From positions 779,686 to 843,685 of the forward strand of contig CP129478.1 of the NCBI GenBank assembly GCA_030583845.1: 64,000 bases of DNA, written 5' to 3'. This stretch comes from Candidatus Dojkabacteria bacterium (lineage in GTDB: Bacteria > Patescibacteriota > Dojkabacteria > SC72 > JAHDCA01). The notes beneath the pieces were generated by a model. It did not search any database, was not told the origin of the DNA, and worked only from the letters and a program-made list of their open reading frames with translations. The position numbers were made by a program, and so were the translations under genes. How positions within the stretch are numbered: the first letter of the stretch is position 1; every line of letters starts with the position of its first letter. This document shows, in pieces, positions 36,444 through 53,311 of the stretch.

Positions 36444-36516
36444 GTTTTGTACGGATGGTAATCCTACGTGGGGATCTATCCGCAAAACTTAATAGCTATT
36501 TCTAAGGAAAATATGA

Positions 36517-36549
36517 AGACCGGCTTACAGAGTCGGTCTTTTTTTTATC
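36517..36549 (+). terminator. Rho-independent terminator
   Basis: GACCGGCTTACAGAGTCGGTC is followed by TTTTTTTT. Confidence 0.65.
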
Positions 36550-36551
36550 GA

Positions 36552-36662
36552 CCCCGCTAACCTATAGAGCATTGGTAAGGTTAAAATCTTAAGACAATTT
36601 AACACCTGTAATAAAAAACGTTGTACCTGCGCAAGCTTTATTATCATTATAGGTTAGCGGGG
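36552..36662. repeat. Inverted-repeat element, family CCCCGCTAACCTATAG (copy a)
   Basis: 15-bp terminal inverted repeats CCCCGCTAACCTATA...TATAGGTTAGCGGGG enclose ~80 nt. The right arm creates the spurious GTG start of the trxB ORF. Confidence 0.65.
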
Positions 36663-36712
36663 TGATCGAGCCAGGTGGTATACTGGTCATGAATAAATTT
36701 CGCCATATCGAT

Positions 36713-37645
36713 ATGTCAGATCAAAAAGTTCATGAATTAATAATTATCGGCTCAGGCCCAGCTGGACTAACAGCAGCAATTTATGCCGCACGTGCTGACC
36801 TTAAGCCGCTGCTTATTGCAGGCATCAAATTTGGTGGCCAGTTGATGGATACAACATTGGTGGAAAACTATCCTGGCTTTATTGATGGTGTAATGGGACC
36901 AGAGTTAATGAACAGCATGATGAAGCAGGCCGAGCGATTTGGCACAGAGGTTGTCTATAAGAACGCGGATAAGGTCGATTTCACAGGTGATGTTAAAAAA
37001 GTATATGTTGAAGACACCGAGTATCAGGCCAAGAGTGTCATACTCGCTATGGGCTCCTCGCCACGAAGGCTAAATATACCGGGAGAGCAGGAGTTCTATG
37101 GTCGTGGTGTATCTACCTGCGCAACCTGCGATGCAGCCTTTTATCGTGATAAAATCGTCGCAGTAGTTGGTGGCGGTGACAGCGCAATGGAAGAAAGCAC
37201 ATTCCTCACAAAATTTGCCAGTAAAGTTTATGTAATCCATCGCCGTGACGAGTTCAGAGCCTCAAAAGCGATGCAAAATAGGCTTTTTGAAAACAAGAAG
37301 ATAGAGGTGATCTGGAATGCAGAAGTCACTGAAGTAGTAGGGAGTGAAGTAGTTACTTCTTTAAAATTGCAAGACAACAACGGAAATTCACTCGACGATA
37401 TCACAGTTGATGGCATGTTCTTGGCTATAGGCCATATCCCAAATACTCAGATATTGGAGGGCCAAATTGAATTAGATGAGCAGGGATTTATAATTGTAAA
37501 AGATGGCCGCACCAAGACTTCAAACGAGGGTGTGTTTGTTGCCGGTGATATTAAGGATCATGTTTATCAGCAGGCTGTAACAGCTGCGGGTATGGGCTGC
37601 ATGGCTGCGATGGATGTAGAGAAGTGGCTTGAGAGCAAGAAATAG
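36713..37645 (+). CDS. trxB: Thioredoxin reductase
   Basis: The FAD site is IIIGSGPAGLTAAIYAARA, the redox site is CATCDAAFY and the NADPH site is VVGGGDSAMEE. The start is taken at MSDQKVHELIIIGSGPAG. Confidence 0.85.
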   Translation: MSDQKVHELIIIGSGPAGLTAAIYAARADLKPLLIAGIKFGGQLMDTTLVENYPGFIDGVMGPELMNSMMKQAERFGTEVVYKNADKVDFTGDVKKVYVEDTEYQAKSVILAMGSSPRRLNIPGEQEFYGRGVSTCATCDAAFYRDKIVAVVGGGDSAMEESTFLTKFASKVYVIHRRDEFRASKAMQNRLFENKKIEVIWNAEVTEVVGSEVVTSLKLQDNNGNSLDDITVDGMFLAIGHIPNTQILEGQIELDEQGFIIVKDGRTKTSNEGVFVAGDIKDHVYQQAVTAAGMGCMAAMDVEKWLESKK

Positions 37646-37762
37646 CCTCTCTCTCGTCAGACTTTACACGAAAGCGTAAAGCGCCTACAAACCTTTTCAC
37701 ACATGTTGGATTCTGCCCTACTATCAAGATATAATCCAATAATTACTTGAGACTACACAATA

Positions 37763-38923
37763 ATGGAAATCGTTCTCTACACATTAATCGGATTAATCAT
37801 AGGCGGTGCCATTGCACTCGTGATTGCTTACTTCATCCTCAAGCCAAAAAGTAAAGTAAACGATGAGGTGCTTCTACAGACCTTGGAGCTAAAGATAAAA
37901 GCGATGATGCCTGAACTTATCAATGAATCTTCGGAAAACCTAATCAAGATAGCTAACGAAAAGCTTGGTGCAGAGAAGAAAGAGATCAGGGCTGATATGG
38001 AGAGCAAGCGATCCGAGATGACGCGAATGGTGCAGCAGATCGAGCGACAATTGAAAAACAATGAGGACAAGCTCGCGGCTTCTGATAAAGAAAGGATCGG
38101 CTCATTCAATGCACTAAAGGAACGACTAGAGGAGCAGACAAGGATTTCCGAGCAGCTCCGTGTCTCAACAGAGAACCTAAAGAAAGTGCTGTCCAATAAT
38201 CAGATGCGTGGCCATTTCGGCGAACAGGTTGCAGAAGATCTTCTCAAAATGTCAGGCTTTGTAGTCGGCAAGGATTACGAATTTAACAAGGCACAAGAGA
38301 CGCGCGAGACACGCCCTGATTTCACGATATATATGCCCGACCGTACCAAGATTAACGTAGACGCCAAATTCCCGTACGCAAATCTGCAGAAGCTTGCTGA
38401 GACTGAGAACGAAGAGCAGCAGAAGGAGTATCGCAAGCTATTTGAAAAAGATGTGAAGGATAAGATCAAGCAGGTAACAGTCCGCGACTATATCAACCCA
38501 GAAGAGGGTACTGTGGACTTTGTAATAGTGTTTATCCCGAACGAGATGATCTTCTCCTGGATATATGACCAGATGAATGAGATCTGGGTCGAGGCAATGC
38601 GCAAGAAGGTTATCTTCGCTGGCCCGTTTAGCTTCACTGCGATCTTGAGGATGGTGCGCCAAGCGTATGACAACTTCGAGATTAAAGGGAACATACGAGA
38701 GATTATTGGGCATGTTAAAGCTTTCTCTACTGAGTTCGCGAAATTTGACGATGAATTTCAGAAGGTTGGAGATAGGATCCAGGCGCTTGATAAGCAGTTT
38801 GCAACAGTAAATAGCACCCGCATGAATCAGCTACGCAGAAAGATGGACAGGGTTCAGATGCTTGAGGAGCCTGTTGAAGAGAGTACTTCCGGGGAAAGTG
38901 ATACGATCAAGATGATTGAGTAG
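37763..38923 (+). CDS. rmuC: DNA recombination protein RmuC
   Basis: An N-terminal TM and coiled coil precede the RmuC core RPDFTIYMPD...DAKFPY...DFVIVFIPNE. Confidence 0.75.
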   Translation: MEIVLYTLIGLIIGGAIALVIAYFILKPKSKVNDEVLLQTLELKIKAMMPELINESSENLIKIANEKLGAEKKEIRADMESKRSEMTRMVQQIERQLKNNEDKLAASDKERIGSFNALKERLEEQTRISEQLRVSTENLKKVLSNNQMRGHFGEQVAEDLLKMSGFVVGKDYEFNKAQETRETRPDFTIYMPDRTKINVDAKFPYANLQKLAETENEEQQKEYRKLFEKDVKDKIKQVTVRDYINPEEGTVDFVIVFIPNEMIFSWIYDQMNEIWVEAMRKKVIFAGPFSFTAILRMVRQAYDNFEIKGNIREIIGHVKAFSTEFAKFDDEFQKVGDRIQALDKQFATVNSTRMNQLRRKMDRVQMLEEPVEESTSGESDTIKMIE

Positions 38924-39040
38924 TCCTACGCTAAAGCTACGGACTACATATAGTCATACACCAAAGCTACTGACTACATCTAGTCACGCTAAAGCTACGG
39001 ACTACACTGTAGTCACACACCAAAGCCTTACTCTAGAGCG
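38924..39040. repeat. Array of four ~30-nt tandem hairpin repeats
   Basis: Units (C)TAGTCACGCTAAAGCTACGGACTACA and TAGTCATACACCAAAGCTACTGACTACA alternate. Each is bounded by GTAGTC...GACTAC inverted ends. The array lies between the convergent rmuC and DUF1846 genes. Confidence 0.6.
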
Positions 39041-40131
39041 AGATCAGGGTTGTAGCCCCTTTCATTTATATACTTCAAGGCACGATCTTCAAGCAGCTCG
39101 CATTTCCTATACCACTCCTGATCTCCAGCACCACGCGCAATTATCTGTGCATACCACTCTTTGCGCCTGCGGATCTCGTGCAAGCTTGCAATACACACAA
39201 CCTCATCGTTTTCGATTGCGTGACCGGCGAAATTAATTCCCATGTCGGTTGGTGATTTATACTCGTTCATGAAGCTGGTTGAATCTAGAAGCTTATCTTT
39301 CATGCTCAAGATAATCTTGAATGCATCGACGTCGCGATTGTAGTTTACCGAATTTTTCCCATAAGCCTCCATATGATATGTATCGATCACATTGTAGTCG
39401 CCGATATCAGCCGTGGCAGCCTCATAGGCAAGATTGATCGGGTGGTTCAAGGGAAGAATCCAGATAGGGAAGGTCTCATACTTGGCATAGCCGGAAATTA
39501 GCCCGTGCTGCTTATCGAGATAGATCTGGCCGAGACATGTGGACATTTTACCGCTATTGGAGCCAGCACCGGTTACCAGGATTAGGTTTTTATTGCTTTC
39601 GACATAATCGTCAGCTCCATATCCTGTATCGCTCAAAACAGCATCTGTACTATCTGGGTAGCCTTCGATCTTATACCTTCTCTTGACTGTATACCCTTGG
39701 CTCGATAGAGATTCCTCAAAGCCCTGCACTTCCTGGTCATGGTTGATTCGATCACACAAATTTATGACAATCTTCGGTTTAATATCAAATGTTGACTCAA
39801 GCTCCTTAATCGCTCTGCTGCAATAATCGGTGTATGACTCACGGTCGCTCCGCATCTGCCTGTCATTTGCAATATCCTCAGCCTTGACACAGTAAAAGAT
39901 ATCGAGGAAGCCGTGCAACTCTTTTAAAATGGTCACCTTCGTTACAGGGTCAAAGCCTGGAAGCACACGTGCAGCATGCGCATCATAAAGGAATTTCCCA
40001 CCGATCTCGAAGTACAGTTTGCCATCTTTGAATCGATCAATGCGCTCTAAAATCTTTTTCTTCTGGTTCTGGATATACTTTGGGTTGTTGAATCCGGAGA
40101 CTTTGTATTGGATTATGTCGCTGCTTGTCAC
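39028..40131 (-). CDS. UPF0371/DUF1846-family protein
   Basis: The N-terminal block KILERIDRFKDGKLYFEIGGKFLYDAHAARVLPGFDP and ...KYETFPIWILPLNHPINLAYEAATAD resemble, from memory, streptococcal UPF0371 proteins. Confidence 0.5.
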   Translation of the reverse strand: MTSSDIIQYKVSGFNNPKYIQNQKKKILERIDRFKDGKLYFEIGGKFLYDAHAARVLPGFDPVTKVTILKELHGFLDIFYCVKAEDIANDRQMRSDRESYTDYCSRAIKELESTFDIKPKIVINLCDRINHDQEVQGFEESLSSQGYTVKRRYKIEGYPDSTDAVLSDTGYGADDYVESNKNLILVTGAGSNSGKMSTCLGQIYLDKQHGLISGYAKYETFPIWILPLNHPINLAYEAATADIGDYNVIDTYHMEAYGKNSVNYNRDVDAFKIILSMKDKLLDSTSFMNEYKSPTDMGINFAGHAIENDEVVCIASLHEIRRRKEWYAQIIARGAGDQEWYRKCELLEDRALKYINERGYNPDLALE

Positions 40132-40199
40132 GATTATCTGTCTATAAGTTAGCGGATGAGATACTGTTAAAGATAGCCTAAAGAAGGGTAAATGAAAAG

Positions 40200-40242
40200 C
40201 CCCGCTAACCTATAAGTCGATTCGACTTATAGGTTAGCGGGG
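40200..40242. repeat. Inverted-repeat element, family CCCCGCTAACCTATAG (copy b, minimal)
   Basis: It is a near-perfect 43-nt palindrome CCCCGCTAACCTATAAGTCGA/TTCGACTTATAGGTTAGCGGGG. A partial extra arm CTATAAGTTAGCGG lies at 40142. Confidence 0.65.
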
Positions 40243-40262
40243 CTTTAATTGCTACACCAAAA

Positions 40263-40853
40263 CTACTCAGCCTTTGGCTCAGATGGTGTTGAAGCTGGAG
40301 CCTCGCTCTTCATTGCAGGAGCAGCGCCTTTTGGCTCAGCAAATGCAATGTAAAGAGGTACTAACCAACCTACAACCGGAACTATTACGAGTAAACCGTA
40401 CCAGTTCTCGAAGCCTCGTCTTTCAGCTATTTTCATCCAAACAATCAAGTAGTAAACAATGTTTACGAATGGGATAAAGAAGAGGATAAATTTCCAACCA
40501 TCCTCGTTAGCTACTCTGACCATGTAGTAGTAGTTAACAAATGGTACCCAAGCCATCCATGCAGGATCAGATGTACCAACCTTCTTACCAATTGTCATAA
40601 GCACATAGGCCATGACCACGTAGAAGACAATACCGAATACTGCCCAGCACATCATATATGCGCTAAGTGCTGCCAAAGCTGCAGCTGTATCCTCTTCGCT
40701 AGTATCCGTAGTTGTATAGAGAAGATCATCCTCGTACGTATAGTCGTAATCATAATCAAACTCGTCCTGTGCCATTGCTGGCGATGCATACGCATATACA
40801 CCCATTGCAAAGGCTGCTAGCGCTGCGAAACCCACGATAAATCTTTTCAGCAT
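40263..40853 (-). CDS. Membrane protein with an acidic Tyr/Asp-rich N-terminal region and repeated W-x-x-(V/I)P(F/V)V helices
   Basis: A signal/TM is followed by DEFDYDYDYTYEDDLLY. Three further TMs carry WMAWVPFVNYYYM, WKFILFFIPFVNIVYY and LLVIVPVVGWLVPLYIAF. I could not assign a family. Confidence 0.35.
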   Translation of the reverse strand: MLKRFIVGFAALAAFAMGVYAYASPAMAQDEFDYDYDYTYEDDLLYTTTDTSEEDTAAALAALSAYMMCWAVFGIVFYVVMAYVLMTIGKKVGTSDPAWMAWVPFVNYYYMVRVANEDGWKFILFFIPFVNIVYYLIVWMKIAERRGFENWYGLLVIVPVVGWLVPLYIAFAEPKGAAPAMKSEAPASTPSEPKAE

Positions 40854-40930
40854 TGTCTTAATGAGAAAATTTAAATAAATCTTAATCTGAGTTTACTCTA
40901 AATTTTTCACATACGTCAATAGCTTTTAGT

Positions 40931-41545
40931 GTGTGCACAGATATGATAATTTGGAGTATGCAAATTAGCGATGCAATTCTATATAACAAGGGCAGCAATG
41001 CTGTGTTAATTACAGCGCCGCATAGCACTGCGCATAGACGGCCTAGCTATTCGGGTTCATTGAGGCCGGCCGAGTTGTGGACTGACAACATTGCATTAGA
41101 GCTTGGCGAGAGGAGCGGCGCGCATACACTAGTAGTCAATGATCAGCTAGACTTTGATCCGAATTACCACGCAGTCGCAGACAATCTTTTTAAGCAGAGG
41201 GTGCAGGAAATAGTTGAGTCTGAAAAGATTAAATACATTTTCGACCTGCATGGCCTGAGCGAGATCTATCCATATGATTTTGGCTACTATTTTTCGCGTC
41301 GGTTTTATAAGTCAAAACGAATTGCATATGGTTTAGCCCAGTCTATCAACCAGAATTTGCTCCGACAGGCAGTTGCACAGGTTCTCTGTTTCAATGAAAA
41401 TTTGCAGGAAAGTATTGGTCAGTTTGCGGTGAAGAACCTCGGAACTGTGGCTGTGCAGCTGGAGATCGCTCGCTATATCCGAGAGGATGAGTTACTGAGG
41501 CAGAATTTCGTCACTGGGATGGAGCAGTATCTGCTGACTCTCTAA
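40931..41545 (+). CDS. Hypothetical protein
   Basis: The ORF is intact and contains a ...AVLITAPHSTAHR... segment. I recognise no family; the start may be the internal MQISD. Confidence 0.3.
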   Translation: MCTDMIIWSMQISDAILYNKGSNAVLITAPHSTAHRRPSYSGSLRPAELWTDNIALELGERSGAHTLVVNDQLDFDPNYHAVADNLFKQRVQEIVESEKIKYIFDLHGLSEIYPYDFGYYFSRRFYKSKRIAYGLAQSINQNLLRQAVAQVLCFNENLQESIGQFAVKNLGTVAVQLEIARYIREDELLRQNFVTGMEQYLLTL

Positions 41546-41552
41546 GCACAGA

Positions 41553-41594
41553 CCAAGTCGCACTTTGCAAGTGCGACTTCGCGAAGGCGGAGTT
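41553..41594. repeat. 42-nt palindromic repeat, copy 2 (identical to 25768..25809)
   Basis: It lies immediately 3' of ORF 40931..41545 and upstream of the recA promoter region. Confidence 0.7.
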
Positions 41595-41639
41595 GATAGT
41601 ATTTCTTCATTAGAAATTCATTAAAAATATAGCTGTTTT

Positions 41640-41668
41640 TTGACCCTTAACCCACCCTCTGTTACACT
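41640..41668 (+). promoter_or_regulatory. Putative sigma-70-type promoter of recA
   Basis: TTGACC, a 17-nt spacer and TACACT lie ~30 nt upstream of the recA ATG. It is preceded by the direct repeat TTCATTAgaaaTTCATTAA at 41606..41625. Confidence 0.4.
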
Positions 41669-41699
41669 CTCAATATCTAAAATTTATAGTAATTCCTAT

Positions 41700-42770
41700 A
41701 TGCCATCCAAAGGAAGCACAGATGTAAAGAAAACTGCCGCCAAAGCCCTACAACCAACAAAAGCCGCCCCACCAACTAAGCCAAAGATCGACCCGAACAA
41801 AGCGATGGCAGTTGATGCCGCGATTCAGCAGATCGAGAAGCAGTTTGGAAAAGGCTCAATTATGCGACTCGGCAGCCGAGAAAAGATTGATGTCCCTGTT
41901 ATTTCGACTGGCGCTCTATCTTTGGATATGGCTCTCGGTATTGGTGGTATCCCAAGAGGCAGAATAATTGAAATCTATGGGCCAGAATCATCTGGTAAAA
42001 CTACCCTTGCAATGCATATCCTCGGAGAGGCTCAGAAGGCTGGTGAGATGGTGGCATTTATTGATGCAGAGCACGCATTTGATCCAGTCTACGCTAAGCG
42101 GATTGGCATTGATGTAAATGAAATGTATATTTCTCAGCCAGACTTCGGTGAGCAGGCGCTTGAGATCTTAGAGACATTGGTAAGGTCATCAGGGTTCGGT
42201 GTGATCGTTGTTGACTCTGTAGCGGCACTTACTCCCAGAGCTGAGATCGAAGGAGAGATGGGTGACAGCCATATGGGATTGCAAGCAAGGCTGATGTCAC
42301 AGGCGCTTCGCAAGATCACCGCGATTGCAAGCAAGACCAACACGACAGTAATTTTCCTCAACCAGCTTCGTATGAAGATCGGCGTAATGTTCGGAAATCC
42401 TGAAACAACCACCGGTGGTAATGCACTGAAATTCTACGCCTCTATCAGGATGGATATCAGACAGCGAGAGAAGGTGATGGAAGAGGGCGAAGTCATTGGA
42501 CACACTAGAGTAGTAAAAGTAGTGAAGAATAAGCTTGCGCCACCATTTAGAGAGGCGACATTCACTATCAAGTATCCAACCGGCATCGACAAAGAAAGCA
42601 GCATCCTTGATGCTGCAGTGGCCCGTGGGATTGTCGAGAAATCTGGCGCATGGATGAAGTATGGCGACTCTCAGCTCGCGCAGGGACGAGAGGGCGCAAT
42701 CCAGGAGCTCAAAGATAACTCGAAGCTACGTGACGAAATCGAGAAAAAAGTGCGAGATACTATAAAGTAG
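41700..42770 (+). CDS. recA: Recombinase RecA
   Basis: The P-loop [13 protein letters not shown] and the L1/L2 and core motifs are present across the full-length RecA fold. The start is taken at [11 protein letters not shown]; the ORF is open from 41640. Confidence 0.9.
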
Positions 42771-42836
42771 TGCTACAATGTGTGTGAGGTCGATCTGAAA
42801 TGAGGCCTTGCACACATTAAATTATTCAAGATTACT

Positions 42837-43898
42837 ATGGCAGAGAATGAAGTCAATTCGTACGATATCGGCTACGAGAGTTTGAAAACCAACCATCACA
42901 AGAATCGCTGGTGGAAGCGTGGGTGCTGGTGGGGCATTGGAATCCTATTTATTGTGCTTGCTTTTGCTACCGTATGCGGACTCTTCACATTGATTATAGT
43001 TGCAGTAGCGGATGTCTCTGAGGGTGCGAGCAGCGGCTATATTTACGATCCAGATGAGACTTTGATCGAGGAAGGAACCTCGACAAATAAGATCGCGGTA
43101 ATAAATGTGAGCGGAGTAATCACCCAAGGAGCGACATTGTCACCATTCGGTAGCTCATCGGGTGCAGTCACATCATTTGTCAATCGGGATTTGAAGAAAG
43201 CATATGACGATCCTGATGTTAAGGCAGTCTTGCTTCATATCGAGTCTCCTGGTGGTGAGGCAGTAGCAAGTGACCTGATATATCAGCAGGTGAAGGCATT
43301 GTCGTCTAAGAAGCCAGTGGTAGTCTACTCAAGCAACATGGTGGCTTCGGGTGGCTATATGATCGCGATGGGGAGTGATTATTTTATGACGCATGAAGGA
43401 GCAATAACTGGATCTATAGGTGTAATATTGCAAGCACAAAGCTTGGCAGGGTTATACGAGAAGCTCGGCATTGAGACGGCTACATTCAAGTCAGGGAATT
43501 TCAAGGATGACGAAGAGATTTTCGACGAGAATCCAAACGGCGAGCTTGACCAGGTATATCAAGAATTGGTAGATGAGACATATCAATCATTTGTGTCAAT
43601 TGTGGCTGAAGGTAGAGGCATGACACCGTCACAGGTAAAGGTGTTGGCTGATGGTCGTGTGTATTCTGGTAAGCAGGCTGCGCTGAACGGTCTGATCGAT
43701 GAGACAGGCTATATCCGAGATGCATATGAGAAGGCCGAGGAGCTTGCTGGAGAGGATGGGCTAACAATTGTTGAATATAACAGCTACGATCCTTGGGCAG
43801 ATCTTTTTGGTCTAAAATCCCTTAGCAAGAAGGCAGAAGAGGTAAGTGTAGTTGATCAGCCTGGAATCCAGCTTTACTACTTGGTGGAGGCCAATTGA
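42837..43898 (+). CDS. sppA: Signal peptide peptidase SppA (36K type)
   Basis: An N-terminal TM precedes the S49 core HIESPGGEAVASD...VVYSSNMVASGGYMIA. Confidence 0.8.
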   Translation: MAENEVNSYDIGYESLKTNHHKNRWWKRGCWWGIGILFIVLAFATVCGLFTLIIVAVADVSEGASSGYIYDPDETLIEEGTSTNKIAVINVSGVITQGATLSPFGSSSGAVTSFVNRDLKKAYDDPDVKAVLLHIESPGGEAVASDLIYQQVKALSSKKPVVVYSSNMVASGGYMIAMGSDYFMTHEGAITGSIGVILQAQSLAGLYEKLGIETATFKSGNFKDDEEIFDENPNGELDQVYQELVDETYQSFVSIVAEGRGMTPSQVKVLADGRVYSGKQAALNGLIDETGYIRDAYEKAEELAGEDGLTIVEYNSYDPWADLFGLKSLSKKAEEVSVVDQPGIQLYYLVEAN

Positions 43899-43952
43899 AG
43901 TCTGACCACTTGGCATTATTGCCTTTGAATACTCGATGCTAAACTAAACCAA

Positions 43953-44603
43953 GTGGTTGGAATGAAGATTACAGATCTTAAGATTCAGAAGAGGAATCAG
44001 AACAGATTCAATATGTTTGTTGATGGTGAGTTTGTTGTCGGTGTCTCGGCAAATATCGTTGCGAAATATGGGATTTATAAAGAGCGCGATATAGAAACAG
44101 AAGAGCTTGCATTGATATCAGAGGCGGCGATCTTTGAACGTTTTTGGAACCGTACTGTAAAATATCTTGAGAGCAGGCTTAGGAGCGAGTACCAGGTACG
44201 GCAATATATTCGCAAGCTATATCATCAGAAGAGAGATGATTGGATAGGTAAGAATGTTGACTTTGATCTGGGGAAGATGGAAGAGCGTATAATCGAGGAG
44301 TTGCTCAGGTTCAAAATAATCGATGATCGGGCTTATGCAGAGGCATTCATCCGTGATAGGACCAAGATGCGACCGAGGGGCAAGATATTGCTGGTACAGG
44401 AGCTTAGATCTAAAGGAATCGACCGGAAGCTGGCTAATGAGGTTGTAAATGAGCTGATTGTCGATGAGGGGACATTAATAGCTGACACTTTATATAAAAA
44501 GTATAAGGTTCGAGAGCTATCTCGTAACGACAGGAAAAAGATTGACTATCTGAGAAGGCGAGGATTTAGCTGGGATCAGATAAGTCGCTTGATTAATGAT
44601 TAA
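43953..44603 (+). CDS. recX: RecA regulator RecX
   Basis: RecX-type helical repeats are present (IDDRAYAEAFIRDR...GKILLVQELRSKGIDRKLANEV), in synteny with recA. Confidence 0.7.
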   Translation: MVGMKITDLKIQKRNQNRFNMFVDGEFVVGVSANIVAKYGIYKERDIETEELALISEAAIFERFWNRTVKYLESRLRSEYQVRQYIRKLYHQKRDDWIGKNVDFDLGKMEERIIEELLRFKIIDDRAYAEAFIRDRTKMRPRGKILLVQELRSKGIDRKLANEVVNELIVDEGTLIADTLYKKYKVRELSRNDRKKIDYLRRRGFSWDQISRLIND

Positions 44604-44621
44604 ATTGTGATCTAGAAGATT

Positions 44622-46358
44622 TTGACACTTGAAAGCAAGAAAAATTGGCAGCTTCCAGAGAATATATCAATCGAAGAGCTGGAAAAGTATAAGAGCCTTT
44701 CCCCTAAAATAGCATCCTTACTTCACTCGAGAGGCATCGCAGCTGAAGACTCTGAAAGATTCTTAAAGCCGACGCTCGACCAGGTCCCTGACTTTACCCA
44801 TCTGTACAACGCTGACAAAGCAGCAAAGCAGATAGTAGAAGCCGTGAAAGCAGGCAGGAAGATCTATATCCATGGGGATTTTGACGCAGATGGAATATGC
44901 GCAACCTCGATTTTATGGGAGTTCATCTATCGTGAAATGCCCAAAGCTATAGGCAAGGAAGTCGATGTGATGCCATATATTCCAGATAGGGCCACAGAAG
45001 GGTACGGGCTTTCTGAACCGTCAGTTGAGGCTATGATAGATGGCGGTGCAAAGCTCATTATTACGGTTGATTGTGGTGTCCGCGACAAGAAGCTGATTCA
45101 AGAGATTCAGAAAAAGCATGGAGTTGAGTTTATTGTGACAGACCACCACCAGCCACCCGACGATTTAGCAAAGAAGCTCGATTACACAGTTGTGCACCAG
45201 ATGTATCCGGACCATCACTACCCAGAGCTGCAGATCTGTGGGTCGGTAGTTGCGTTGCTGCTGATTCAGGCAATTAGAGCCGAGCTAGCTCTGCCGTACG
45301 AATTTAATGAAGACACTCCAGGGCTCGATCTGGCAGGTATGGCCACTGTCACGGATATGATGCCGCTAACTGGTGTAAACCGAGTCTTGGTAAAAGCCGC
45401 ATTAGATCAGATAAAGAAGGGTAAACGTGTAGGCTTGGTCCAGCTGTGTGAAATCGCAAAAGTTGACCCTAAGGCGATCGAGGCGTATCACTTCGGATTT
45501 GTGCTTGGTCCTAGGATTAACGCATCAGGCCGCATAGGCTCAGCGATCGAGGCGGTAAAGCTTCTTGTCACCGAGAACCCTGTAATCGCAAGAAAGAATT
45601 CCGCTTCATTAAATTCATTGAACTACCAGAGGCAGCAGCTGACCGAGGAGATAATGCAGGCGGCAAGGCTGCGAATCGATACAGAGTTAAAAGATGACAA
45701 GCTTATCTTTCTTGATGGTGAAAATTGGCCAGAAGGGATAATCGGATTAGTCGCGGGTAAGATTCAGGAAGCATATGGGAGGCCGACTGTTGTGGTAACG
45801 GTAAAGGATGAAGAAATAAAAGGCTCGGCACGAAGTCTAAAGGGCTTTAACATAACTAATGCAATCGAGGAATTTAATGAGCTGCTTGAGAGGTATGGTG
45901 GTCACGAGCAGGCTGCCGGCTTCAGTGTGAAGGTCGGAAAGCTTGAGGAATTTCGCCAGGCGCTGGTAAATTATGCCAATGAGAAGATCGACCCGACAGC
46001 CCTGACGAGCGAGCTAAAGATTGACATGATAATCGATACTGAAGATATGAATGTTGATACAGTAAATGAGCTGGCACAGCTTGAGCCGTTTGGCTACGGC
46101 AATCGCAAGCCGGTCGTGATGCTGCAAGGGGTTGTTGTGTTTGAGAAATTTGTAATGGGGCGAGGTGGCAATCACTTGAGGCTAAAGCTGAAAGGCGACG
46201 GGATCGGATTTGGTACGGCGGTGATGTTTGACTGTGCTGAGGATATTGAGAAGATTGAGGTCGACGACCTGCTGGATATCGCTGGCACGCTGGGGATAAA
46301 TGAGTGGAACGGTAATGTAGACGTGCAATTTCTGGTAAAAGAATGGCGCAAGCCTTAG
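44622..46358 (+). CDS. recJ: Single-stranded-DNA-specific exonuclease RecJ
   Basis: The DHH motifs are IYIHGDFDADGICA, VDCG and IVTDHHQPP, followed by a DHHA1 domain. It has a TTG start. Confidence 0.85.
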   Translation: MTLESKKNWQLPENISIEELEKYKSLSPKIASLLHSRGIAAEDSERFLKPTLDQVPDFTHLYNADKAAKQIVEAVKAGRKIYIHGDFDADGICATSILWEFIYREMPKAIGKEVDVMPYIPDRATEGYGLSEPSVEAMIDGGAKLIITVDCGVRDKKLIQEIQKKHGVEFIVTDHHQPPDDLAKKLDYTVVHQMYPDHHYPELQICGSVVALLLIQAIRAELALPYEFNEDTPGLDLAGMATVTDMMPLTGVNRVLVKAALDQIKKGKRVGLVQLCEIAKVDPKAIEAYHFGFVLGPRINASGRIGSAIEAVKLLVTENPVIARKNSASLNSLNYQRQQLTEEIMQAARLRIDTELKDDKLIFLDGENWPEGIIGLVAGKIQEAYGRPTVVVTVKDEEIKGSARSLKGFNITNAIEEFNELLERYGGHEQAAGFSVKVGKLEEFRQALVNYANEKIDPTALTSELKIDMIIDTEDMNVDTVNELAQLEPFGYGNRKPVVMLQGVVVFEKFVMGRGGNHLRLKLKGDGIGFGTAVMFDCAEDIEKIEVDDLLDIAGTLGINEWNGNVDVQFLVKEWRKP

Positions 46359-46466
46359 GTCTCGTGCTTTTCACTGCAACACGCTTTTAGAGTATAATCC
46401 CGATTGGAGGTTACAGGGAGTCTCGAGACACTTGCGTAGAACGTGGCTGGAAACTACCTAGGCAAT

Positions 46467-46542
<76 letters not shown>

Positions 46543-46602
46543 TATTTTAGGAATCTCTCGAGCTCACTCCTCTCCTAACCACTTGAGGAATTATACAAGT
46601 GG

Positions 46603-46854
46603 TTGGATGCGGAGGAGTTCTCAAAATTCCTGAAACATGGTATGGAATACCAGGGTAAAGGATACGCCACTGAAGCGCTGAATAGGCTGATTGAATTCTG
46701 TTTTAGTTTAGAAGGTGTTCATAAGATATTTGGAGAATGTGACAAAGAAAATATTGCCTCACAGAGAATCATGGAGAAGTGTGGTATGAAGTTCGAGCGC
46801 GAAGTAGAAGAGGGTGATGGAGTAGTGAGTATACAATTTAGTATTGAAAAGTAG
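46603..46854 (+). pseudogene. C-terminal fragment (~83 aa) of a GNAT N-acetyltransferase
   Basis: QGKGYATEALNRLIEFCF...IASQRIMEKCGMKFE is the GNAT motif A/B region, but the N-terminal half of the fold is missing. It begins inside a hairpin 60 nt after tRNA-Ala. Confidence 0.5.
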
Positions 46855-46865
46855 AGGAGTGGCTT

Positions 46866-47345
46866 ATGCCGCAAATTACTAATCGGTTTGAGCAGGGTAG
46901 AGGCTTAATATCTACGGAAACCTACTCACTTGGGGGATCGGATCTCTACAATAGAACGCCAAGTGAATTAGAGAAAAACAGTGCCGTCTTCATCTCAGCT
47001 GACCTGGACGGAACTGAAAGTGGGACGAGAATTCTCGAAGAGGTAACTAGATATTTTGGTGAAGCTGACTACGGTAGCCTCCTTGGGTTGCCAGGACGTA
47101 CGCAGTTTGATGAGGCCGCCTTGTTACAAAGTTTAACTCGTTCTACTCTGGTCACCATGAATAATCCATTGGATGAAGGGAGAAGGGTTGTACTAGTTGA
47201 TTTCTACTATGGAGAACAACGATATCTTGCTATTCAACATATATTCCCTACAGGTGAGCTTGCTTGGGCTTTCTTCCAGCGGCTGATAACTTTGAATAAA
47301 GTGTTTGAGCGCATCTACTTTTCACACCTTAGAGGTGGCATTTAG
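46866..47345 (+). CDS. Hypothetical protein (159 aa)
   Basis: The ORF is intact with no recognisable motif. Confidence 0.3.
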   Translation: MPQITNRFEQGRGLISTETYSLGGSDLYNRTPSELEKNSAVFISADLDGTESGTRILEEVTRYFGEADYGSLLGLPGRTQFDEAALLQSLTRSTLVTMNNPLDEGRRVVLVDFYYGEQRYLAIQHIFPTGELAWAFFQRLITLNKVFERIYFSHLRGGI

Positions 47346-47384
47346 CGACCTTTTTCATTCTGAGTCAAAGTCATTAGCAGCCAA

Positions 47385-48113
47385 CTATTGAGAATTGGAT
47401 TTAGTATACAGTTCTCCATCCACCTTCAACACATAGTCCATATTCTCAGCCACGAGCTCGTAGCTCATATCATATGTCTGCATAAATTCCTCATCATAGG
47501 TGTAAACACCGTAAACTGCTAGCTCCTCTAAGGAGCTAGGGTAGTATCCAAAGGCAAAAAAGTAAGTCTCTAGTAAATACTGAGTGTGGGTTGCTATGGT
47601 CACGGGATCTGTGTCCAAGGGCTGCTCATTGCTACCTGATGATAGATCTAGCGGCTCGTAAGAGTAGTCGATCGATCCAGTGTTGGCCTCAATTAAGTAG
47701 CTTTGGCCGTCATTTTGCAGTGTGTACGATACGTTGTAGTCCGAAATGAATTGTGTGTCATAAATCATGTAATCTGGATCTAGCTCCTCAAGAGATTCGG
47801 GGTAGTAACCATAATCCTCATAGTAAAAGTCGAGACTTGCATTGTAGTTCTCGATCGTAGTGTAGAAGAAAACCTGATCTGCATCCTCTGCCAATCTCTC
47901 TGCCCCTTCGGTCATATTCCGGATGAATATAAAGCCAGCATATGTACCGCAACAGCTACACAGTGCAAGAAATGCTAGCACCGCAACTACGATCGCTATT
48001 ACTTTACCATTCTTACTGCTCTTACTTGGTTTAACCTCCTGTGCTTCAACTTTTTTCGTTTCCGTAGGCTTAATCTCAGGTTGAACCTCTTTTTCGGGGA
48101 TAGAATTTTCCAT
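47385..48113 (-). CDS. Membrane-anchored protein with two tandem ~70-aa repeats (GYYP.SLEEL ...)
   Basis: A single TM VIAIVVAVLAFLAL is followed by the repeats YGYYPESLEELDPDYMIYDTQFISDYNVSYTLQNDG and FGYYPSSLEELAVYGVYTYDEEFMQTYDMSYELVAEN. It is a pilin/pseudopilin-like alpha-beta module without a prepilin leader. Confidence 0.4.
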   Translation of the reverse strand: MENSIPEKEVQPEIKPTETKKVEAQEVKPSKSSKNGKVIAIVVAVLAFLALCSCCGTYAGFIFIRNMTEGAERLAEDADQVFFYTTIENYNASLDFYYEDYGYYPESLEELDPDYMIYDTQFISDYNVSYTLQNDGQSYLIEANTGSIDYSYEPLDLSSGSNEQPLDTDPVTIATHTQYLLETYFFAFGYYPSSLEELAVYGVYTYDEEFMQTYDMSYELVAENMDYVLKVDGELYTKSNSQ

Positions 48114-48489
48114 AAAAATTTGTAATAAATTTACTCCTAGCTTTGCTCTACTAAAATTATACTTGTAATTATGGCTCTGTTCAAATATAATTCGAAGAAG
48201 CGACCAGGGAGAGTGTGAGCCTGGGTTTTTGAAGTGACCTCAGCCTTTGTGCTGTGACATGAGTGAAAATTTAATGAAAAGCGGTTGTAGTTTTACAACA
48301 ATCGAGGTGGCACCACGGTGATAATCGTCCTCTTTCTATTGAAATTATTTAGTAGAAAGCGTAGGGCGATTTTGTTTTTTAGCTTCTTAAACAGGTGGCA
48401 GTCGGAAGCTTATTAATTGCTAGGGCAAGGCCAATTGTTTAAGAATCCAAAAAACAAAAATAAGTGAATTAATTTTTGAGTTACACAAA

Positions 48490-50733
48490 ATGGAAACTAA
48501 ATTGGACAGAATATTGGCTCGGTCAACGAGCGAAAAAACCGGAGAGAAAGTTAAAGTATCAGGCTGGGTGGCATCGGTCAGAGACCACGGCCAGCTCCTC
48601 TTTCATCGACCTACGAGACTGGTCGGGACGTGTACAGCTAGTCGTAAACCCTGAGAACAAAGCAGCATTTGAGGTAGCCAAATCATCTGGGCAGCGAGTT
48701 TGTAATATCCGCAACAGGCGAGGTCGTTGAAAGAGACAACTCACTTCTAAATGATAAGCTTGGATACAGGAAAAATCGAGATAATCGTAGACGAGCTGGA
48801 GTTAATCAACAAGACAAAGCCTTTGCCATTCCCGATCGACACAACTGGCCATGAGATCGACGAAAACACTCGACTCGAAGTACCGATACCTAGACCTACG
48901 CCGCGAACGACTCAAGACAAACATGATAAAGCGACACAAGCTGATGCTTGCCGTCCGTCAGTGGATGGACAAGAACGGCTTCACCGAAATTACCACGCCG
49001 CTTCTTACAAGCACATCACCTGAAGGTGCAAGAGACTTCATGGTCCCTTCAAGAATTCATAAAGGGAAATTCTATGTGTTGCCACAGGCACCGCAGCAGT
49101 TTAAGCAGCTGCTCATGGTCGGTGGTATCGATAAATACTTCCAGATTGCACCTTGTGCGCGTGACGAGGACCCAAGAGCCGACAGGCATTACGGTGTGTT
49201 TTATCAGATCGACATTGAGATGAGCTTCCCGACAATCGACAGGCTTTTCTCAACCTGTGAGAACCTGATCAAAGAGACATATAAAACAGTCGCTCCCGAC
49301 AAGGAGATTATGGAATTTCCATTCCCTCGCATTCCACATGCTGAGGCTATGGAGCGTTTCGGCTCTGACAAGCCAGATATCAGATTCGGACTTGAGATGA
49401 AAGATATAACTGAGGTTGTAAAAGACAAAACTGAATTTAACATCTTCAATAGCGCAGAGGTAGTAAAAGCCATTGTGGCTGAGAGGGCAGGTGAGTGGAG
49501 TCGAAAAGAGATTGAGGATATGGAAACATTTCGCTAAAAGGTGAAGGCGCTAAGGGCTTGGCCTACACAAAGGCAGCAGGAGGAAAGCTCGAGGGTGGAA
49601 TTGGTAAATTCCTAGAACCGGTAACAGCAGAGCTTATCGAAGCAACTGGAGCCAAAGATGGTGATCTAATCTTTTTTGGTGCCGACGACCGCAAAATTGT
49701 AAATAAAGTATTAGGACAGGTACGTTCAAAGCTTGGAGACCTACTCGGCTTAAAAGATCCGAAGAAGTTGGCCTTTGCATGGATTACCGACTTTCCAATG
49801 TACGAAATAGACGAAAAGACGGGCAAAATCGACTTTGCTCACAACCCATTCTCGATGCCGAAAGGTGGGCTCGAGGCATTCAACAAGGAAAACCCGCTTG
49901 AGATCGAGTCAAACCAGTACGACGTCACTCTAAACGGCTTCGAGATTCTATCCGGCTCTATTCGAAACCACGACCCAGAGCTGATGGTGAAGGCATTTGA
50001 GATTGTTGGATACGGCGAAGAAGAGGTGAAGCGAAGGTTCGGCGGACTTTACAACGCATTCCAGTATGGAGCACCTCCACACGGAGGCTGGGCTATCGGC
50101 ATCGACCGTATGTTTATGGTATTTACTGAAGAGCCAAACATACGAGACGTTTATGCATTCCCGACAGCTGCAAACGGTGAAGACCTAATGATGAATGCAC
50201 CAAGCGAGGCATATCCAGAAGATCTGCAGGTTCTCGGCATTGAGATATCCGACAAGGGCGATCTAGTTGTGAACCAGATCCGAGAGCTAATAGACGGATC
50301 AGGAGCTGAGTACAAGTTTATGGAGCACGAGCCGGTACGCACATCAGAGCAGGCGGCTAAAATCCGAGGCACGAAAGTGAGTGAGGGTGCCAAGGCATTA
50401 GTGCTCAAATCACTTGAATATGCTGGCAAATACATAATGGTAGTCATCCCTGCTGATAAGCAGCTCGACCTTGAGAAAGTTGAAAAGGTGCTAGGCGAGA
50501 AGTTTGATGTCGCACCTGCCGAAGAGGTTGAGAGCTACACAGGAGTACAGATGGGTGGTGTGCCACCATTTGGTAGGCTGCTAAAGTTGGAGGTGTATTT
50601 CGACAAGCAGATGTGGGAGAAAGAGATGTCAGCCTTCAACTGTGGTAGGAAAGACAGATCCATCTATATGAAAACTTCTGATTTGATAAAACTTGTGCAG
50701 CCTAATAAAATAGCTGAAGAGTATACCAAGTAG
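48490..50733 (+). pseudogene. aspS: Aspartyl-tRNA synthetase with at least 5 frameshifts in its N-terminal half
   Basis: Collinear AspRS segments lie in different frames: METKL...VSGWVASVRDHGQLLF (frame 1), FIDLRDWSGRVQLVVNPENK (frame 2), SEFVISATGEVVERDNSLLNDKL (frame 0), TGKIEIIVDELELINKTKPLPFPID (frame 1), KYRYLDLRRERLK...FYVLPQAPQQFKQLLMVGGIDKYFQIAPCARDED...FR (frame 2), then YGN..GAKGLAYTKAAGGKLEG...FFGADDRKIV...GGLYNAFQYGAPPHGGWAIGIDR through to the end (frame 1). The shifts are near 48603, 48690, 48770, 48870 and 49527, mostly single extra bases in 2-3-nt homopolymers. Confidence 0.75.
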
Positions 50734-50799
50734 CTCTAGGTCCTGTATGAGCGAAAATGTATATCCAATATTAGATTTGCTGCAAAGCAGTGTCGGATC

Positions 50800-51891
50800 A
50801 TGGATAATAAAGCTGCCGAAAACAAGAGCTTGATAAATAGTAGCTTCCCATCTAGGATGGACGATAAGAAGATAGACAATGTCGTCAATCAGGTACATCG
50901 GTCTACTGGCTTTCACTATCCGAGGCGGAGACGACCAATTGTCATTGGCGCAGGAGTATTGCTGCTTCTGACTATATCCGGAATGGCAATCGCAAAGGCT
51001 GGATTTAGCAAGCCCGAAGTGCAATACCTCAGAGTAAGTAGCCCAGCTGAGAATTTCAGCGAAGAGCTCCCGGATGTTGCCGAGCCGTTTGATATGGAAC
51101 TTCGGGTGAGCGAATTAGATTTCACTGAAATAGATGCTTCATCAGTTTATGCCTACAATCCGGAATCGCATCAGGTTTATTATGAGAAGAATATCGATGA
51201 GAAGAGGCAGATCGCTAGCATAACCAAACTAATGACAGCAACAGTAGTGATAGATCAGTACGATTTTGAAAAGGAGATCGAGGTTACAGATGAGATGCTT
51301 GAGAGTTTTCCTGATGAGTTAAGTCATGTGATTGGCTTTGAAGACGGAGATAAGTTGAGCGTGCAAGAGTTGTACGACGCGATGATGATCAACTCATTTA
51401 ACGATGCTGCTGTGCTTTTGGCTGTTCTGCACCCATCAGGATACGATGGATTCGTCGCCGAGATGAATTCTCGTGCAGAGCAACTTGGCATGGCTAATAC
51501 GAAATTTGCGAACCCCCAAGGCTTCGATTCTGACAATAGCTATTCAACAGCTCGTGATGTACAGCGACTTGTCGGCTATGCGATGCAGTATGAAGAGATA
51601 ATGAGTGCAGCTCAGACTGTTAGCTCGCAGATGACGATAGAGCATGCAAATGGTGAAGTTGAGCAGGTCGACCTTGAATCAACCAACAAACTTCTTGGCA
51701 GACTGAAATATATGAAAGGGCTTAAAACAGGGTATACAGCTGAAGCAGGACCATCTCTTGTGGGTTACTTCGACGCAGGTGCAGAGGAGAAACTTGTAAC
51801 AATCGTCTTGGGTGGGAATGATAATCGATTTGATCTGACTGAAGAGCTTTACTACTTGCTTGGCAAGTCCTACTCACCCCCACCCCGCTAA
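50800..51891 (+). CDS. D-alanyl-D-alanine carboxypeptidase (PBP5/6-like, peptidase S11)
   Basis: An N-terminal TM precedes the SxxK motif SITK, the SxN motif SFNDAA and the KTG motif KTGYT. Confidence 0.8.
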   Translation: MDNKAAENKSLINSSFPSRMDDKKIDNVVNQVHRSTGFHYPRRRRPIVIGAGVLLLLTISGMAIAKAGFSKPEVQYLRVSSPAENFSEELPDVAEPFDMELRVSELDFTEIDASSVYAYNPESHQVYYEKNIDEKRQIASITKLMTATVVIDQYDFEKEIEVTDEMLESFPDELSHVIGFEDGDKLSVQELYDAMMINSFNDAAVLLAVLHPSGYDGFVAEMNSRAEQLGMANTKFANPQGFDSDNSYSTARDVQRLVGYAMQYEEIMSAAQTVSSQMTIEHANGEVEQVDLESTNKLLGRLKYMKGLKTGYTAEAGPSLVGYFDAGAEEKLVTIVLGGNDNRFDLTEELYYLLGKSYSPPPR

Positions 51892-51998
51892 CCTATAGCG
51901 ATGTCGGATCCCCAGATGATTAATTTCTGTTAAGGCCTTCAGGATAAAATCAGGATAATTTCCCTTTCTATATCCGCTATAGGTTAGCGGGGTGGGGG
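51876..51998. repeat. Inverted-repeat element, family CCCCGCTAACCTATAG (copy c)
   Basis: 24-bp TIRs CCCCCACCCCGCTAACCTATAGCG...CGCTATAGGTTAGCGGGGTGGGGG enclose ~75 nt. The left arm supplies the TAA stop of the carboxypeptidase gene. Confidence 0.65.
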
Positions 51999-52000: not shown

Positions 52001-53311
52001 TTACTGCTCTTCGGTAGTAGCCTCGACAGGTGCAGGATCTTGCAAGTTCTCATAATCGATCGCCGGAATATAGTAGTAGAACCTTCCCACTGCACCAGAA
52101 TCAAAAAATGCTTCCCCAATTACGATATAGATTGGCTGCATGAAATCGCGCTTCTCGCGCTCGTCTAAGTACGCAATTCGCACATCATTAACTGCCAGTT
52201 TGCCTACCGACTGAGGGGTATATGGCACAACATCATCACCATCTTTCTCGTTTAGATAGACAAGGCTTCCTTCCCCTTTGGCGATTCTGTTAGATACCTC
52301 GGTTGCTGAGATAAGAGGGTATGTACCACATGGCTCTGGCTCTACTATCCATGCATAATACTCGAGGCCGTACACTTCCTGCACATTTGGACTGGTCTCT
52401 TCAACCTGCTCGTTGGATGGCCCGATATAGATCGAAATATTCGATCGCTGCGTATCTTCATGCACTACCTCTGTGCTGAAGTTATATAGGTCAGCCTTGC
52501 CCTCATCTGTGCTAATCTGCTCGGCGCTATAGTCATAGTTGTGGAATTCCTGTTGTAGCTCCTCTTTTATCTCCTCGGCTCCGTCGATGTTGCTCGGGAC
52601 AGAGATAAATGGCTTTGTTCTATAGAAATCTACTCTAATTAGCTCAGCATCTCCGCGTGACCGTGCCTCAGAGAAGCTTCCATCAGGCTCGATATTTATA
52701 TCTGTAGTCTGTGGCTCCTCGGTTTTGTAATCTTGTAACATCCAGCCGTTGCTTTGGAGGAAGCTAATTGCCATCTGCTTTGCCTGTTCTGAGGTTGGCA
52801 ATTCGCCATCTGATGGGATTGCATTTGAATTTTTAAAATTCACCGACATTGTGAAATTTAATGAAGCTGCCTGTACTACAAGTGATCGACCAAAAGCATC
52901 CTCTTCCCAATAATATTCTGAAGCACCGCGCCTCTTGATCTGCTCGGGCTGGAAGCCGAATTTTAATGCGATCTTCTTGGCTTCATTTTGTGCACCTAAA
53001 AGCGCACCAGGGTTGTCATAAGCATAAACATTGGCAATGAGTGGGAGTTCTTCAATCTTACCGGTAGCCGTTTCGATTGTGAAAAATGGCTCATCTCCGC
53101 CAGAAAGTTCGAGGCTTGGTATCGATAGCCGGTGCTCCTGGAATTGCTCTTTTGTGTCTGTACAGGTATATGTTGGCTTCAAGTACCTTGGTACTGCGCT
53201 TTCCTCGGGCCAGTTCACAACGATAAGTGTAATCACTATGAAGGCACCAAATAGCACTGCACCAATCACTCCTAATCTTCTTGTCCAGTATGCTGATTCA
53301 GTTAATGTCAT
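52001..53311 (-). CDS. Hypothetical membrane-anchored extracytoplasmic protein (436 aa)
   Basis: It has one N-terminal TM and a large soluble domain. No family was recognised. Confidence 0.4.
   Translation of the reverse strand: MTLTESAYWTRRLGVIGAVLFGAFIVITLIVVNWPEESAVPRYLKPTYTCTDTKEQFQEHRLSIPSLELSGGDEPFFTIETATGKIEELPLIANVYAYDNPGALLGAQNEAKKIALKFGFQPEQIKRRGASEYYWEEDAFGRSLVVQAASLNFTMSVNFKNSNAIPSDGELPTSEQAKQMAISFLQSNGWMLQDYKTEEPQTTDINIEPDGSFSEARSRGDAELIRVDFYRTKPFISVPSNIDGAEEIKEELQQEFHNYDYSAEQISTDEGKADLYNFSTEVVHEDTQRSNISIYIGPSNEQVEETSPNVQEVYGLEYYAWIVEPEPCGTYPLISATEVSNRIAKGEGSLVYLNEKDGDDVVPYTPQSVGKLAVNDVRIAYLDEREKRDFMQPIYIVIGEAFFDSGAVGRFYYYIPAIDYENLQDPAPVEATTEEQ

Follow-up and report, generated by a model that had tools for sequence, protein, structure and literature searches.

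The window analysed here is a 64 kb stretch of a 1,036,382-nt contig from a metagenome-assembled genome of Candidatus Dojkabacteria, within the candidate phyla radiation (CPR), and it carries a short repeated arm, CCCCGCTAACCTATA(G/A), that occurs in three inverted pairs (copies 1 to 3) and once as a degenerate solo arm (Table 1). When the 16-mer CCCCGCTAACCTATAG was searched with up to three mismatches, seven matches were found in the window against 0.28 expected, a number that none of 100 shuffles reached. An earlier, sequence-only reading of this DNA had already reported three copies and a partial arm at 40142; our coordinates bear out these positions, and the partial arm is the degenerate solo arm of the table. 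The same reading had described copy 3 as 24-nt arms around a core of about 75 nt, in agreement with the 24 and 74 nt found here, but had given 15-nt arms to copy 1, where they measure 16 nt, and 43 nt to the palindrome of copy 2, which in fact extends over 51 nt. The arms of copies 1 and 3 are 100% complementary, with 81 and 74 nt between them, respectively, and in the window copies as a whole the terminal inverted repeats are 16-25 nt long. In folding predictions all three copies form very stable stems (z = -3.9 to -10.8) with the cores left unpaired, copy 2 reaching -43.7 kcal/mol and z = -10.8. Rfam, run on the whole window at gathering scores, returned tRNAs only, and at permissive E-values copies 1 and 3 gave only meaningless hairpin matches.

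Table 1. Positions of the repeat arms and cores in the window, together with the start region of trxB
Feature	Position	Strand	Remarks
Copy 1, left arm (ACCCCGCTAACCTATAG)	36551-36567	none	16 nt complementary (36551-36566); directly 3' of the intrinsic terminator 36515-36548
Copy 1, core	36568-36646	none	79 nt, AT-rich; no homologue, no Rfam match
Copy 1, right arm (TTATAGGTTAGCGGGGT)	36647-36663	none	16 nt complementary (36648-36663); runs into GTG at 36662
trxB extended -10 box (TGGTATACT) and ATG 36689	36676-36691	+	Host flank, outside the element; TATACT kept upstream of trxB in L119 and L121
Solo degenerate arm (ATCCGCTAACTTATAG on the - strand)	40142-40157	-	10 nt upstream of the DUF1846 start codon
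Copy 2	40196-40246	none	Perfect palindrome, 25+1+25 nt; arms 40196-40220 and 40222-40246
Copy 3, left arm (CCCCCACCCCGCTAACCTATAGCG)	51877-51900	none	24 nt
Copy 3, core	51901-51974	none	74 nt; no homologue
Copy 3, right arm	51975-51998	none	24 nt; stops 2 nt short of the stop codon of the convergent gene (436 aa)

Copy 1 lies between trxB and the strong intrinsic terminator downstream of a conserved 30-aa open reading frame (ORF). This ORF (36351-36443, MFKRTFLRVRRVEISRSNVKAIKHKPRDAP) is rich in arginine and lysine and is also found in a relative, L119 (loci from other genomes are given here by L numbers). The GTG at 36662 follows directly on the right arm, and the trxB gene call (318 aa) begins at ATG 36689; the sequence-only reading considered this GTG a false start created by the arm, a reasonable view in that both the gene call and the N-termini of relatives favour ATG 36689, so that translation most likely does not begin at GTG 36662. 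The -10 box of trxB lies only 4 nt before this ATG, compared to leaders of about 50-70 nt in relatives, and this suggests that the trxB mRNA of the window is leaderless or nearly so. Copy 2 is found between the DUF5684 and DUF1846 genes, both on the - strand, with T-rich runs on both sides; a terminator scan ranked it as the best terminator-like site on both strands of its region, and plausibly it took over the role of a native terminator. No other window copy has the features of an intrinsic terminator (a stem and a U-tract, here on both strands), a U-tract being missing from copies 1 and 3 as well as from most copies in relatives. Copy 3 separates the convergent genes for a DD-carboxypeptidase (Peptidase_S11, dacA) and for a 436-aa protein (52001-53311, - strand), and its left arm encodes the last carboxypeptidase residues, PPPR, together with the TAA stop (51889-51891), the arm-donated stop codon that had been claimed earlier. 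Because the arm holds stop codons in two frames on each strand, a gene clipped at its 3' end meets a stop there, and genes often end inside it, as seen for DacA of the window, for L005 and L040, and for two genes in L050. None of the five tRNA genes of the window has the motif beside it.

Empty sites in relatives and copies in distant genomes

In the syntenic contigs of relatives, whose proteins are 61-76% (DUF1846) and 58-59% (DacA) identical to those of the window, all three sites are empty. At the site of copy 3, only 5 nt (L124) or 19 nt (L123) separate the convergent genes, where the window has its 122-nt element, and DacA ends in ...SYK and ...VYR in relatives, as opposed to ...SYSPPPR in the window, each followed by the stop. 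The site of copy 2 is occupied by unrelated terminator hairpins in L119 and in L120/L121, and by a 10-nt spacer in L122. At the site of copy 1, L119 is without the element and keeps the upstream terminator and the TATACT box of trxB on either side; trxB therefore has no need of the arm. The family is thus polymorphic for presence and absence, with three empty sites and with copies elsewhere in relatives, and, judged by this comparison of sequences, the elements are insertions relative to the related genomes.

A search for a 15-mer of the arm in 596 Gb of species-representative genomes gave massive enrichment only in one other member of the Dojkabacteria, Bin_334, in which about 30 arms form 17 blocks; a further one, UBA4813, holds a single inverted pair, and the remaining genomes show single background matches. 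The DUF1846 protein of Bin_334 is 52% identical to that of the window, and other orthologues are 40-46% identical; the arm is identical in spite of this distance, in one instance over 22 nt (CCCCCACCCCGCTAACCTATAG, in copy 3 of the window and at L062 4577). A metagenome scan added pairs in four contigs (L108, L109, L114 and L116), and in two of them (L108, L116) the pair takes up the whole spacer, the neighbours being two convergent genes or a gene and the 3' end of a tRNA. In L120/L121 a palindrome with a perfect 28-bp stem lies between DUF1846 and RmuC and overlaps both stop codons, and L124 has one palindrome in the 5' untranslated region (UTR) of aspS and another between aspS and dacA. The aspS leader of L124 (300-456) also contains a T-box-like sequence (GGTGGCACCACGG) and a terminator, and the palindrome stands between that terminator and the start codon. 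The arm is absent, on the other hand, from about 97 kb of five other Dojkabacteria lineages (L119 with L123, L122, L125, L126 and L127). The distribution is therefore patchy and does not track relatedness, since Bin_334, at 52%, has the arm and five other sampled lineages, at 58-76% identity in DUF1846, lack it. The sequence-only reading had staked itself on further copies in the genome or conservation in relatives, and many further copies do exist. Viral contigs gave seven single matches, which we took as chance, and BLAST of the minimal palindrome against plasmid and phage collections gave nothing. In the literature library searched, no paper joined Dojkabacteria with inverted repeats, and the papers joining Patescibacteria with miniature inverted-repeat deal, by their titles and abstracts, with unrelated topics.

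Two pairs are found inside the 23S rRNA gene of Bin_334 (L062), which is 4,347 nt long. Helices 25 and 45 are the classical sites of 23S intervening sequences, known from Salmonella, Yersinia, Leptospira and Coxiella. In helix 25, a pair of arms bounds an insertion that falls between E. coli positions 540 and 545 and has a 382-nt core encoding a 108-aa GIY-YIG protein; in helix 45, a second pair bounds an insertion after E. coli position 1162 (1162/1208), and each of the three differences in its degenerate arm results in a G-U pair on the rRNA strand, so that pairing is kept throughout. The Bin_334 copies, unlike those of the window, hence occupy the positions that define a 23S intervening sequence. 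In UBA4813, the pair of arms forms helix P12 of RNase P RNA, with two C-A mismatches on the sense strand. The elements, in short, land in very short intergenic spacers and in helix tips of structural RNAs. Homologues of the Bin_334 GIY-YIG protein were found neither in the window or the related loci by tblastn nor in a large database by a word-based search. The same 23S gene carries an extra insertion of about 1 kb (L062 2987-4004, between E. coli positions 1703 and 1918) that is not bounded by arms and is probably of the intron type. A survey of CPR rRNA genes reports non-intron insertions at helix tips, some of them with GIY-YIG ORFs (PMC11270868); its text contains neither 'inverted repeat' nor 'palindrom-' in any form, and so draws no link to dispersed extragenic repeats.

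Arms, cores and solitary arms

The conserved unit, which mostly occurs as an inverted pair, comprises about 16-18 nt, (C/A)AC-CCCGCTAACCTATAG, with the consensus (c/a)aC-TATAGGTTAGCGGGG-(t/g)(t/g)G, and beyond it nothing is conserved in the flanks, nor is there any -35-like element. The arm itself has no internal stem except CTATAG, and no GTAG. In all 15 pairs the G+C-rich ends point outward, and the spacing between paired arms ranges from 1 to about 600 nt. An all-against-all comparison of 13 pairs, those of the window included, found the cores (9-596 nt) to be unrelated, and what the sequence-only reading had said of its three copies, namely that the arms are conserved and the enclosed DNA is not, can be extended to all of these. 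Comparison of the window cores to the other DNA gathered for this work gave chance matches only. One exact 14-nt match, GATGATTAATTTCT, occurs in core 3 of the window (51915-51928) and beside a solo arm of Bin_334 (L059 5607-5620), 17 and 11 nt inside the arm, respectively; at E = 0.06, this could be either a chance match or a subterminal element. A second strain, L097, which is 98.8% identical overall, differs by five substitutions in the 79-nt core of copy 1, which has the same orientation in both, and by none in the arms. Arms are thus nearly invariant while cores diverge freely. Copies with a short loop are fully symmetric in spite of changes in their arms (TCCGCCACCCTATAG in L124, ACCGCTAACTTATAG in L120 and CTATAA in copy 2 of the window), and pairs with long cores gather one-sided differences, approximately 16 of 19 being transitions in a hand tally. 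Two of the cores contain genes, for a CYTH protein in L045 and for the GIY-YIG protein in L062, and among the ORFs that adjoin the arms of Bin_334 are those for rubrerythrin-like proteins.

In the arms that stand alone in Bin_334, the G+C end either falls between -4 and +2 nt from a GTG start or one of six tRNA 5' ends, or overlaps a stop codon. Read as CTATAGGTTAGCGGG, the arm ends exactly at the 5' end, or 1-2 nt before it, of the genes for tRNA-Leu, tRNA-Met and two tRNA-Arg, and likewise at the GTG starts of leuB (L072) and two further ORFs (L007, L063); the genes for tRNA-Pro and tRNA-Ala start 4 and 3 nt, respectively, within the arm. In seven of the nine cases on the 5' side, TAGGTT ends 6-8 nt before the tRNA +1 or the GTG, near the canonical spacing between -10 and +1, and this spacing weakly suggests an outward start signal. 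About half of the solo arms are found at gene 3' ends, antisense and overlapping stops (L005, L040 and twice in L050). As for the tRNA genes themselves (L040, L052, L053 and L058), those for Leu, Met, Pro and both Arg lack an encoded 3' CCA, which those for Cys, Ala and Ser possess.

A possibly mobile palindromic family and its alternatives

We lean, if only slightly, towards a mobile or formerly mobile palindromic (foldback or REP-like, from repetitive extragenic palindromic) repeat family, specific to some Dojkabacteria, as the explanation of these elements, because they are insertions compared to relatives, sit at different sites in each lineage, have invaded helix tips of rRNA and RNase P RNA, and are patchy in distribution with identical arms in distant genomes. 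The REP- or MITE-like palindrome proposed by the sequence-only reading (MITE, miniature inverted-repeat transposable element) is borne out in the main, by a dispersed family with empty sites, copies elsewhere in relatives and insertions into rRNA and RNase P RNA helices. It does not hold for a canonical MITE, in view of the lack of a duplication, of shared internal sequence and of any autonomous partner seen, nor for a canonical REP, whose GTAG is missing and whose hairpins the arms do not form.

Several of our results weigh against mobility. Target-site duplications, which the sequence-only reading had proposed looking for, did not emerge: no consistent direct repeat accompanies the 15 pairs, ATCG at copy 1 being the sole candidate. 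Beside the copies we saw no gene for a transposase, a RAYT or a recombinase, although neighbours were not systematically screened, and searches of the window, about 130 kb of Bin_334, the loci of relatives and the plasmid and phage collections yielded no autonomous, transposase-bearing partner. No two copies share a core, even though their arms differ by only about 2%. Approximately two thirds of the Bin_334 arms are solitary and yet nearly perfectly conserved, and their placement looks like that of a functional site more than that of a decaying remnant. Finally, the relatives with empty sites are only 58-76% identical in orthologous proteins, and any individual site may have seen loss rather than gain.

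If the family is mobile nonetheless, the arms would presumably be the cis-site of a trans-acting enzyme, because they are the only part under constraint. A DDE transposase is disfavoured by the lack of target-site duplications, and movement might instead take a non-DDE route, be it of the HUH type, by a nuclease plus repair, or by recombination through the arms. Simple copy-and-paste of whole elements does not explain the family, since cores are not shared while arms differ by about 2%. Lineages would have gained the family horizontally. Once transcribed, a pair may form a long, GC-clamped stem that could serve as a 3' hairpin or terminator, as in copy 2, or as a processing stem of the RNase III type, as in the 23S copies. 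By analogy with REP elements, Correia elements and intervening sequences, a stem of this sort can bring about termination, protect the transcript or serve as a substrate of RNase III. Most copies could well be neutral passengers, with a few co-opted, for example as a stop codon or a terminator.

Alternatively, the pairs would have been selected as RNA hairpins, acting as terminators, 3' stabilisers or RNase III stems that keep transcripts apart in a spacer-poor genome, and would owe their shared sequence to recognition by a host protein that binds double-stranded RNA rather than to mobility. The very stable folds, z = -3.9 to -10.8, are in line with this, and so is copy 2, which stands in place of a native terminator and itself receives a terminator score on either strand. 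Variants that compensate each other in both arms exist, G-U wobbles keep the pairing on the sense strand of rRNA and on the transcribed strand of L058 and of copy 1 of the window, and the 23S copies are located at the classical sites of RNase III-processed intervening sequences. This would nevertheless leave several features without explanation: copies 1 and 3 and most of those in relatives have no U-tract; the L124 copy in the aspS 5' UTR is past the T-box terminator, a place where further termination would do harm; relatives manage with spacers of 5-19 nt; solitary arms are unable to form a stem; the RNase P copy has its two C-A mismatches on the sense strand; and selection on structure alone does not account for 16-22 identical nucleotides across lineages that are about 52% identical. 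We therefore regard RNA hairpins as an unlikely origin of the family. The solitary arms point to another possibility, that the arm is a cis-acting site of the host, likely an outward promoter with TAGGTT (or TATAGG) as -10, AGCGGG as discriminator and the start at the outer edge of the arm, the pairs being back-to-back promoters that form hairpins incidentally. It would explain why solitary arms are almost perfectly conserved and why arms end at tRNA 5' ends and GTG starts in Bin_334, seven of nine with fitting spacing, but a promoter seems to us quite unlikely, as a -35 or TG element and a conserved flank are missing, TAGGTT agrees with TATAAT at only three of six positions, the arm reaches into tRNA-Pro and tRNA-Ala, and a similar number of solo arms is antisense at gene 3' ends. 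Moreover, copy 3 of the window has convergent genes on its two sides, trxB comes with a conserved TATACT box of its own downstream of an arm that is missing in relatives, the five tRNAs of the window do without the motif, and the copies within 23S rRNA and RNase P RNA helices and the patchiness across the clade also count against promoter activity.

The sequence-only reading had also considered recombination sites bracketing short cassettes, and the corresponding hypothesis, that the arms are sites of one master site-specific recombinase around invertons or exchangeable cassettes, draws on the conserved inverted arms around unrelated cores of 9-596 nt, some with whole genes (CYTH in L045, GIY-YIG in L062), on genes that abut the arms as in compact cassettes, and on GCTAAC / GTTAGC, which are faintly like the integron attC core sites RYYYAAC / GTTRRRY. 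No positive support for bracketed cassettes was obtained, however, given the lack of arrays, the core orientation shared with L097 and the many arms that are solitary or 1-20 nt apart, a distance too short for inversion or for cassettes. The copies are dispersed singly and form no array beside an integrase, the folding of the cores is unlike that of attC, three metagenome contigs agree with one another, insertions occur in rRNA helices, and no recombinase gene was seen beside the copies, with the limit on neighbour screening already mentioned; we find this hypothesis very improbable. A DNA-uptake signal, whose inverted pairs would double as terminators as they do in Neisseria, would likewise be a short exact motif common to related lineages with inverted pairs downstream of genes, and CPR bacteria do encode competence systems. 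It is scarcely credible in this case, with seven arms in 64 kb (a density about 100-fold below that of known uptake sequences), no copies or near-copies within coding regions save overlaps at gene ends, all 15 of 15 pairs with G+C outward, and none in about 97 kb of five related lineages. Four other ideas were dropped along the way: a T7-like promoter, which has only CTATAG in common with the arm; mimicry of the tRNA acceptor stem, for which the polarity is reversed and one base is in excess; an operator for oxidative-stress genes, which does not fit the tRNA and rRNA contexts; and lox/FRT-like sites, as the spacer length is not fixed.

Going back to a mobile family, a more specific version of it, which we hold as possible though doubtful, would make the arm the sole recognition end of a trans-acting Dojkabacteria enzyme, possibly a nuclease such as the small GIY-YIG protein encoded within the helix-25 copy, that installs single or paired arms at the edges of transcription units without duplication. 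The arm might then be a portable gene-boundary module, providing a stop codon, half of a stem and an outward start signal, that also invades rRNA and RNase P RNA helices and moves between deeply diverged CPR lineages. If this were true, we would be dealing with a new kind of minimal mobile element, one whose repeat multiplies regardless of the DNA between its copies. The mobile DNA of the ultra-small, streamlined CPR genomes is poorly characterised, and the arm ties together three things that are normally treated apart, namely extragenic palindromes, 23S intervening sequences and an expanded RNase P RNA. Should the arms be enzyme ends, they would open a way to study the entry of intervening sequences into rRNA genes, and would bear on how terminators and stop codons are gained in genomes with 5-20-nt spacers. 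Some caution in annotation is also in order, as arms create false start codons and arm-encoded C-termini.

Other repeats were seen in the window. Two further perfect palindromes, at 34379-34430 (23-nt arms) and 19399-19432 (17-nt arms), are unrelated in sequence to the family studied here, the latter, with a T-run behind it, being terminator-like. A 24-nt repeat in two identical copies, GTGCGACTTCGCGAAGGCGGAGTT, which contains a palindrome resembling CGACTTCGCGAAG, is present at 25786-25809 and 41571-41594, the latter copy scoring as terminator-like (41574-41595). The spacer between the convergent RmuC and DUF1846 genes (38924-39027) contains three tandem hairpin units, GACTACAnnTGTAGTC followed by loops resembling CGTAGCTTTAGCG; this 13-mer is also the loop of the DUF5684 terminator in the relative L120, and these hairpin units look like a second small repeat family.

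Comparison with known systems

The closest known systems are REP/REPIN repeats, 23S intervening sequences and Correia elements. The foldback (FB) transposons of eukaryotes also have conserved inverted arms with a central loop that is absent or consists of unrelated DNA, but their arms are hundreds of bp of internal tandem repeats, they make target duplications and they belong to another domain of life, so that the likeness is formal only. MITEs share terminal inverted repeats with our elements, and neither target duplications nor a shared internal sequence of similar length is found here. The copies are not integron attC sites or cassette arrays, being singly dispersed, with unpaired cores and no integrase seen nearby; they lack the density and the uniform presence in a clade that mark DNA uptake sequences; and, with regard to invertons, the core of copy 1 has a single orientation in two strains (window and L097) and many cores are too short to invert.

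Correia elements of Neisseria (CREE/NEMIS) are likewise small, non-autonomous inverted repeats that lie beside genes, are co-transcribed with them and are polymorphic for insertion between strains, and their arms can supply outward promoters, terminators and stems cleaved by RNase III. They differ in having a conserved body of about 100-150 bp and a TA target duplication, neither of which is present here, and our TATAG is at the inner end of the arm rather than at the outer one. The 23S intervening sequences are matched by the Bin_334 copies in their two sites (E. coli about 540-545 and 1162-1208), in a stem made of inverted ends and in one ORF, with the difference that the stem sequence in our case is also dispersed, over several genomes, in intergenic DNA and in RNase P RNA.

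REP, BIME and REPIN elements, which are mobilised by RAYT in Proteobacteria, are similarly short, extragenic palindromic repeats with a GC-rich stem base, found at gene 3' ends and in convergent spacers, without target-site duplication and with an occasional role as terminator or mRNA 3' hairpin. Our copies, too, lie outside genes or at their edges as inverted doublets plus singlets, and the doublets of copies 1 and 3, of about 110-120 nt with a spacer of about 75 nt, are reminiscent of REPINs, which likewise coexist with singlets. The arms described here, in contrast, are not hairpins singly and lack a 5' GTAG; their spacers are unrelated and range from 1 to about 600 nt, whereas those of REPINs are homologous and of fixed length; the ORFs they enclose are GIY-YIG and CYTH, and no RAYT gene was seen; and they are identical across lineages that are about 52% identical, with copies inside rRNA and RNase P RNA. 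What sets this family apart from the known systems is, indeed, that conservation over a deep divergence is limited to the arms, that one and the same arm recurs in palindromes outside genes, in rRNA intervening sequences and in P12 of RNase P RNA, and that well-preserved solo arms stand at the edges of transcription units.

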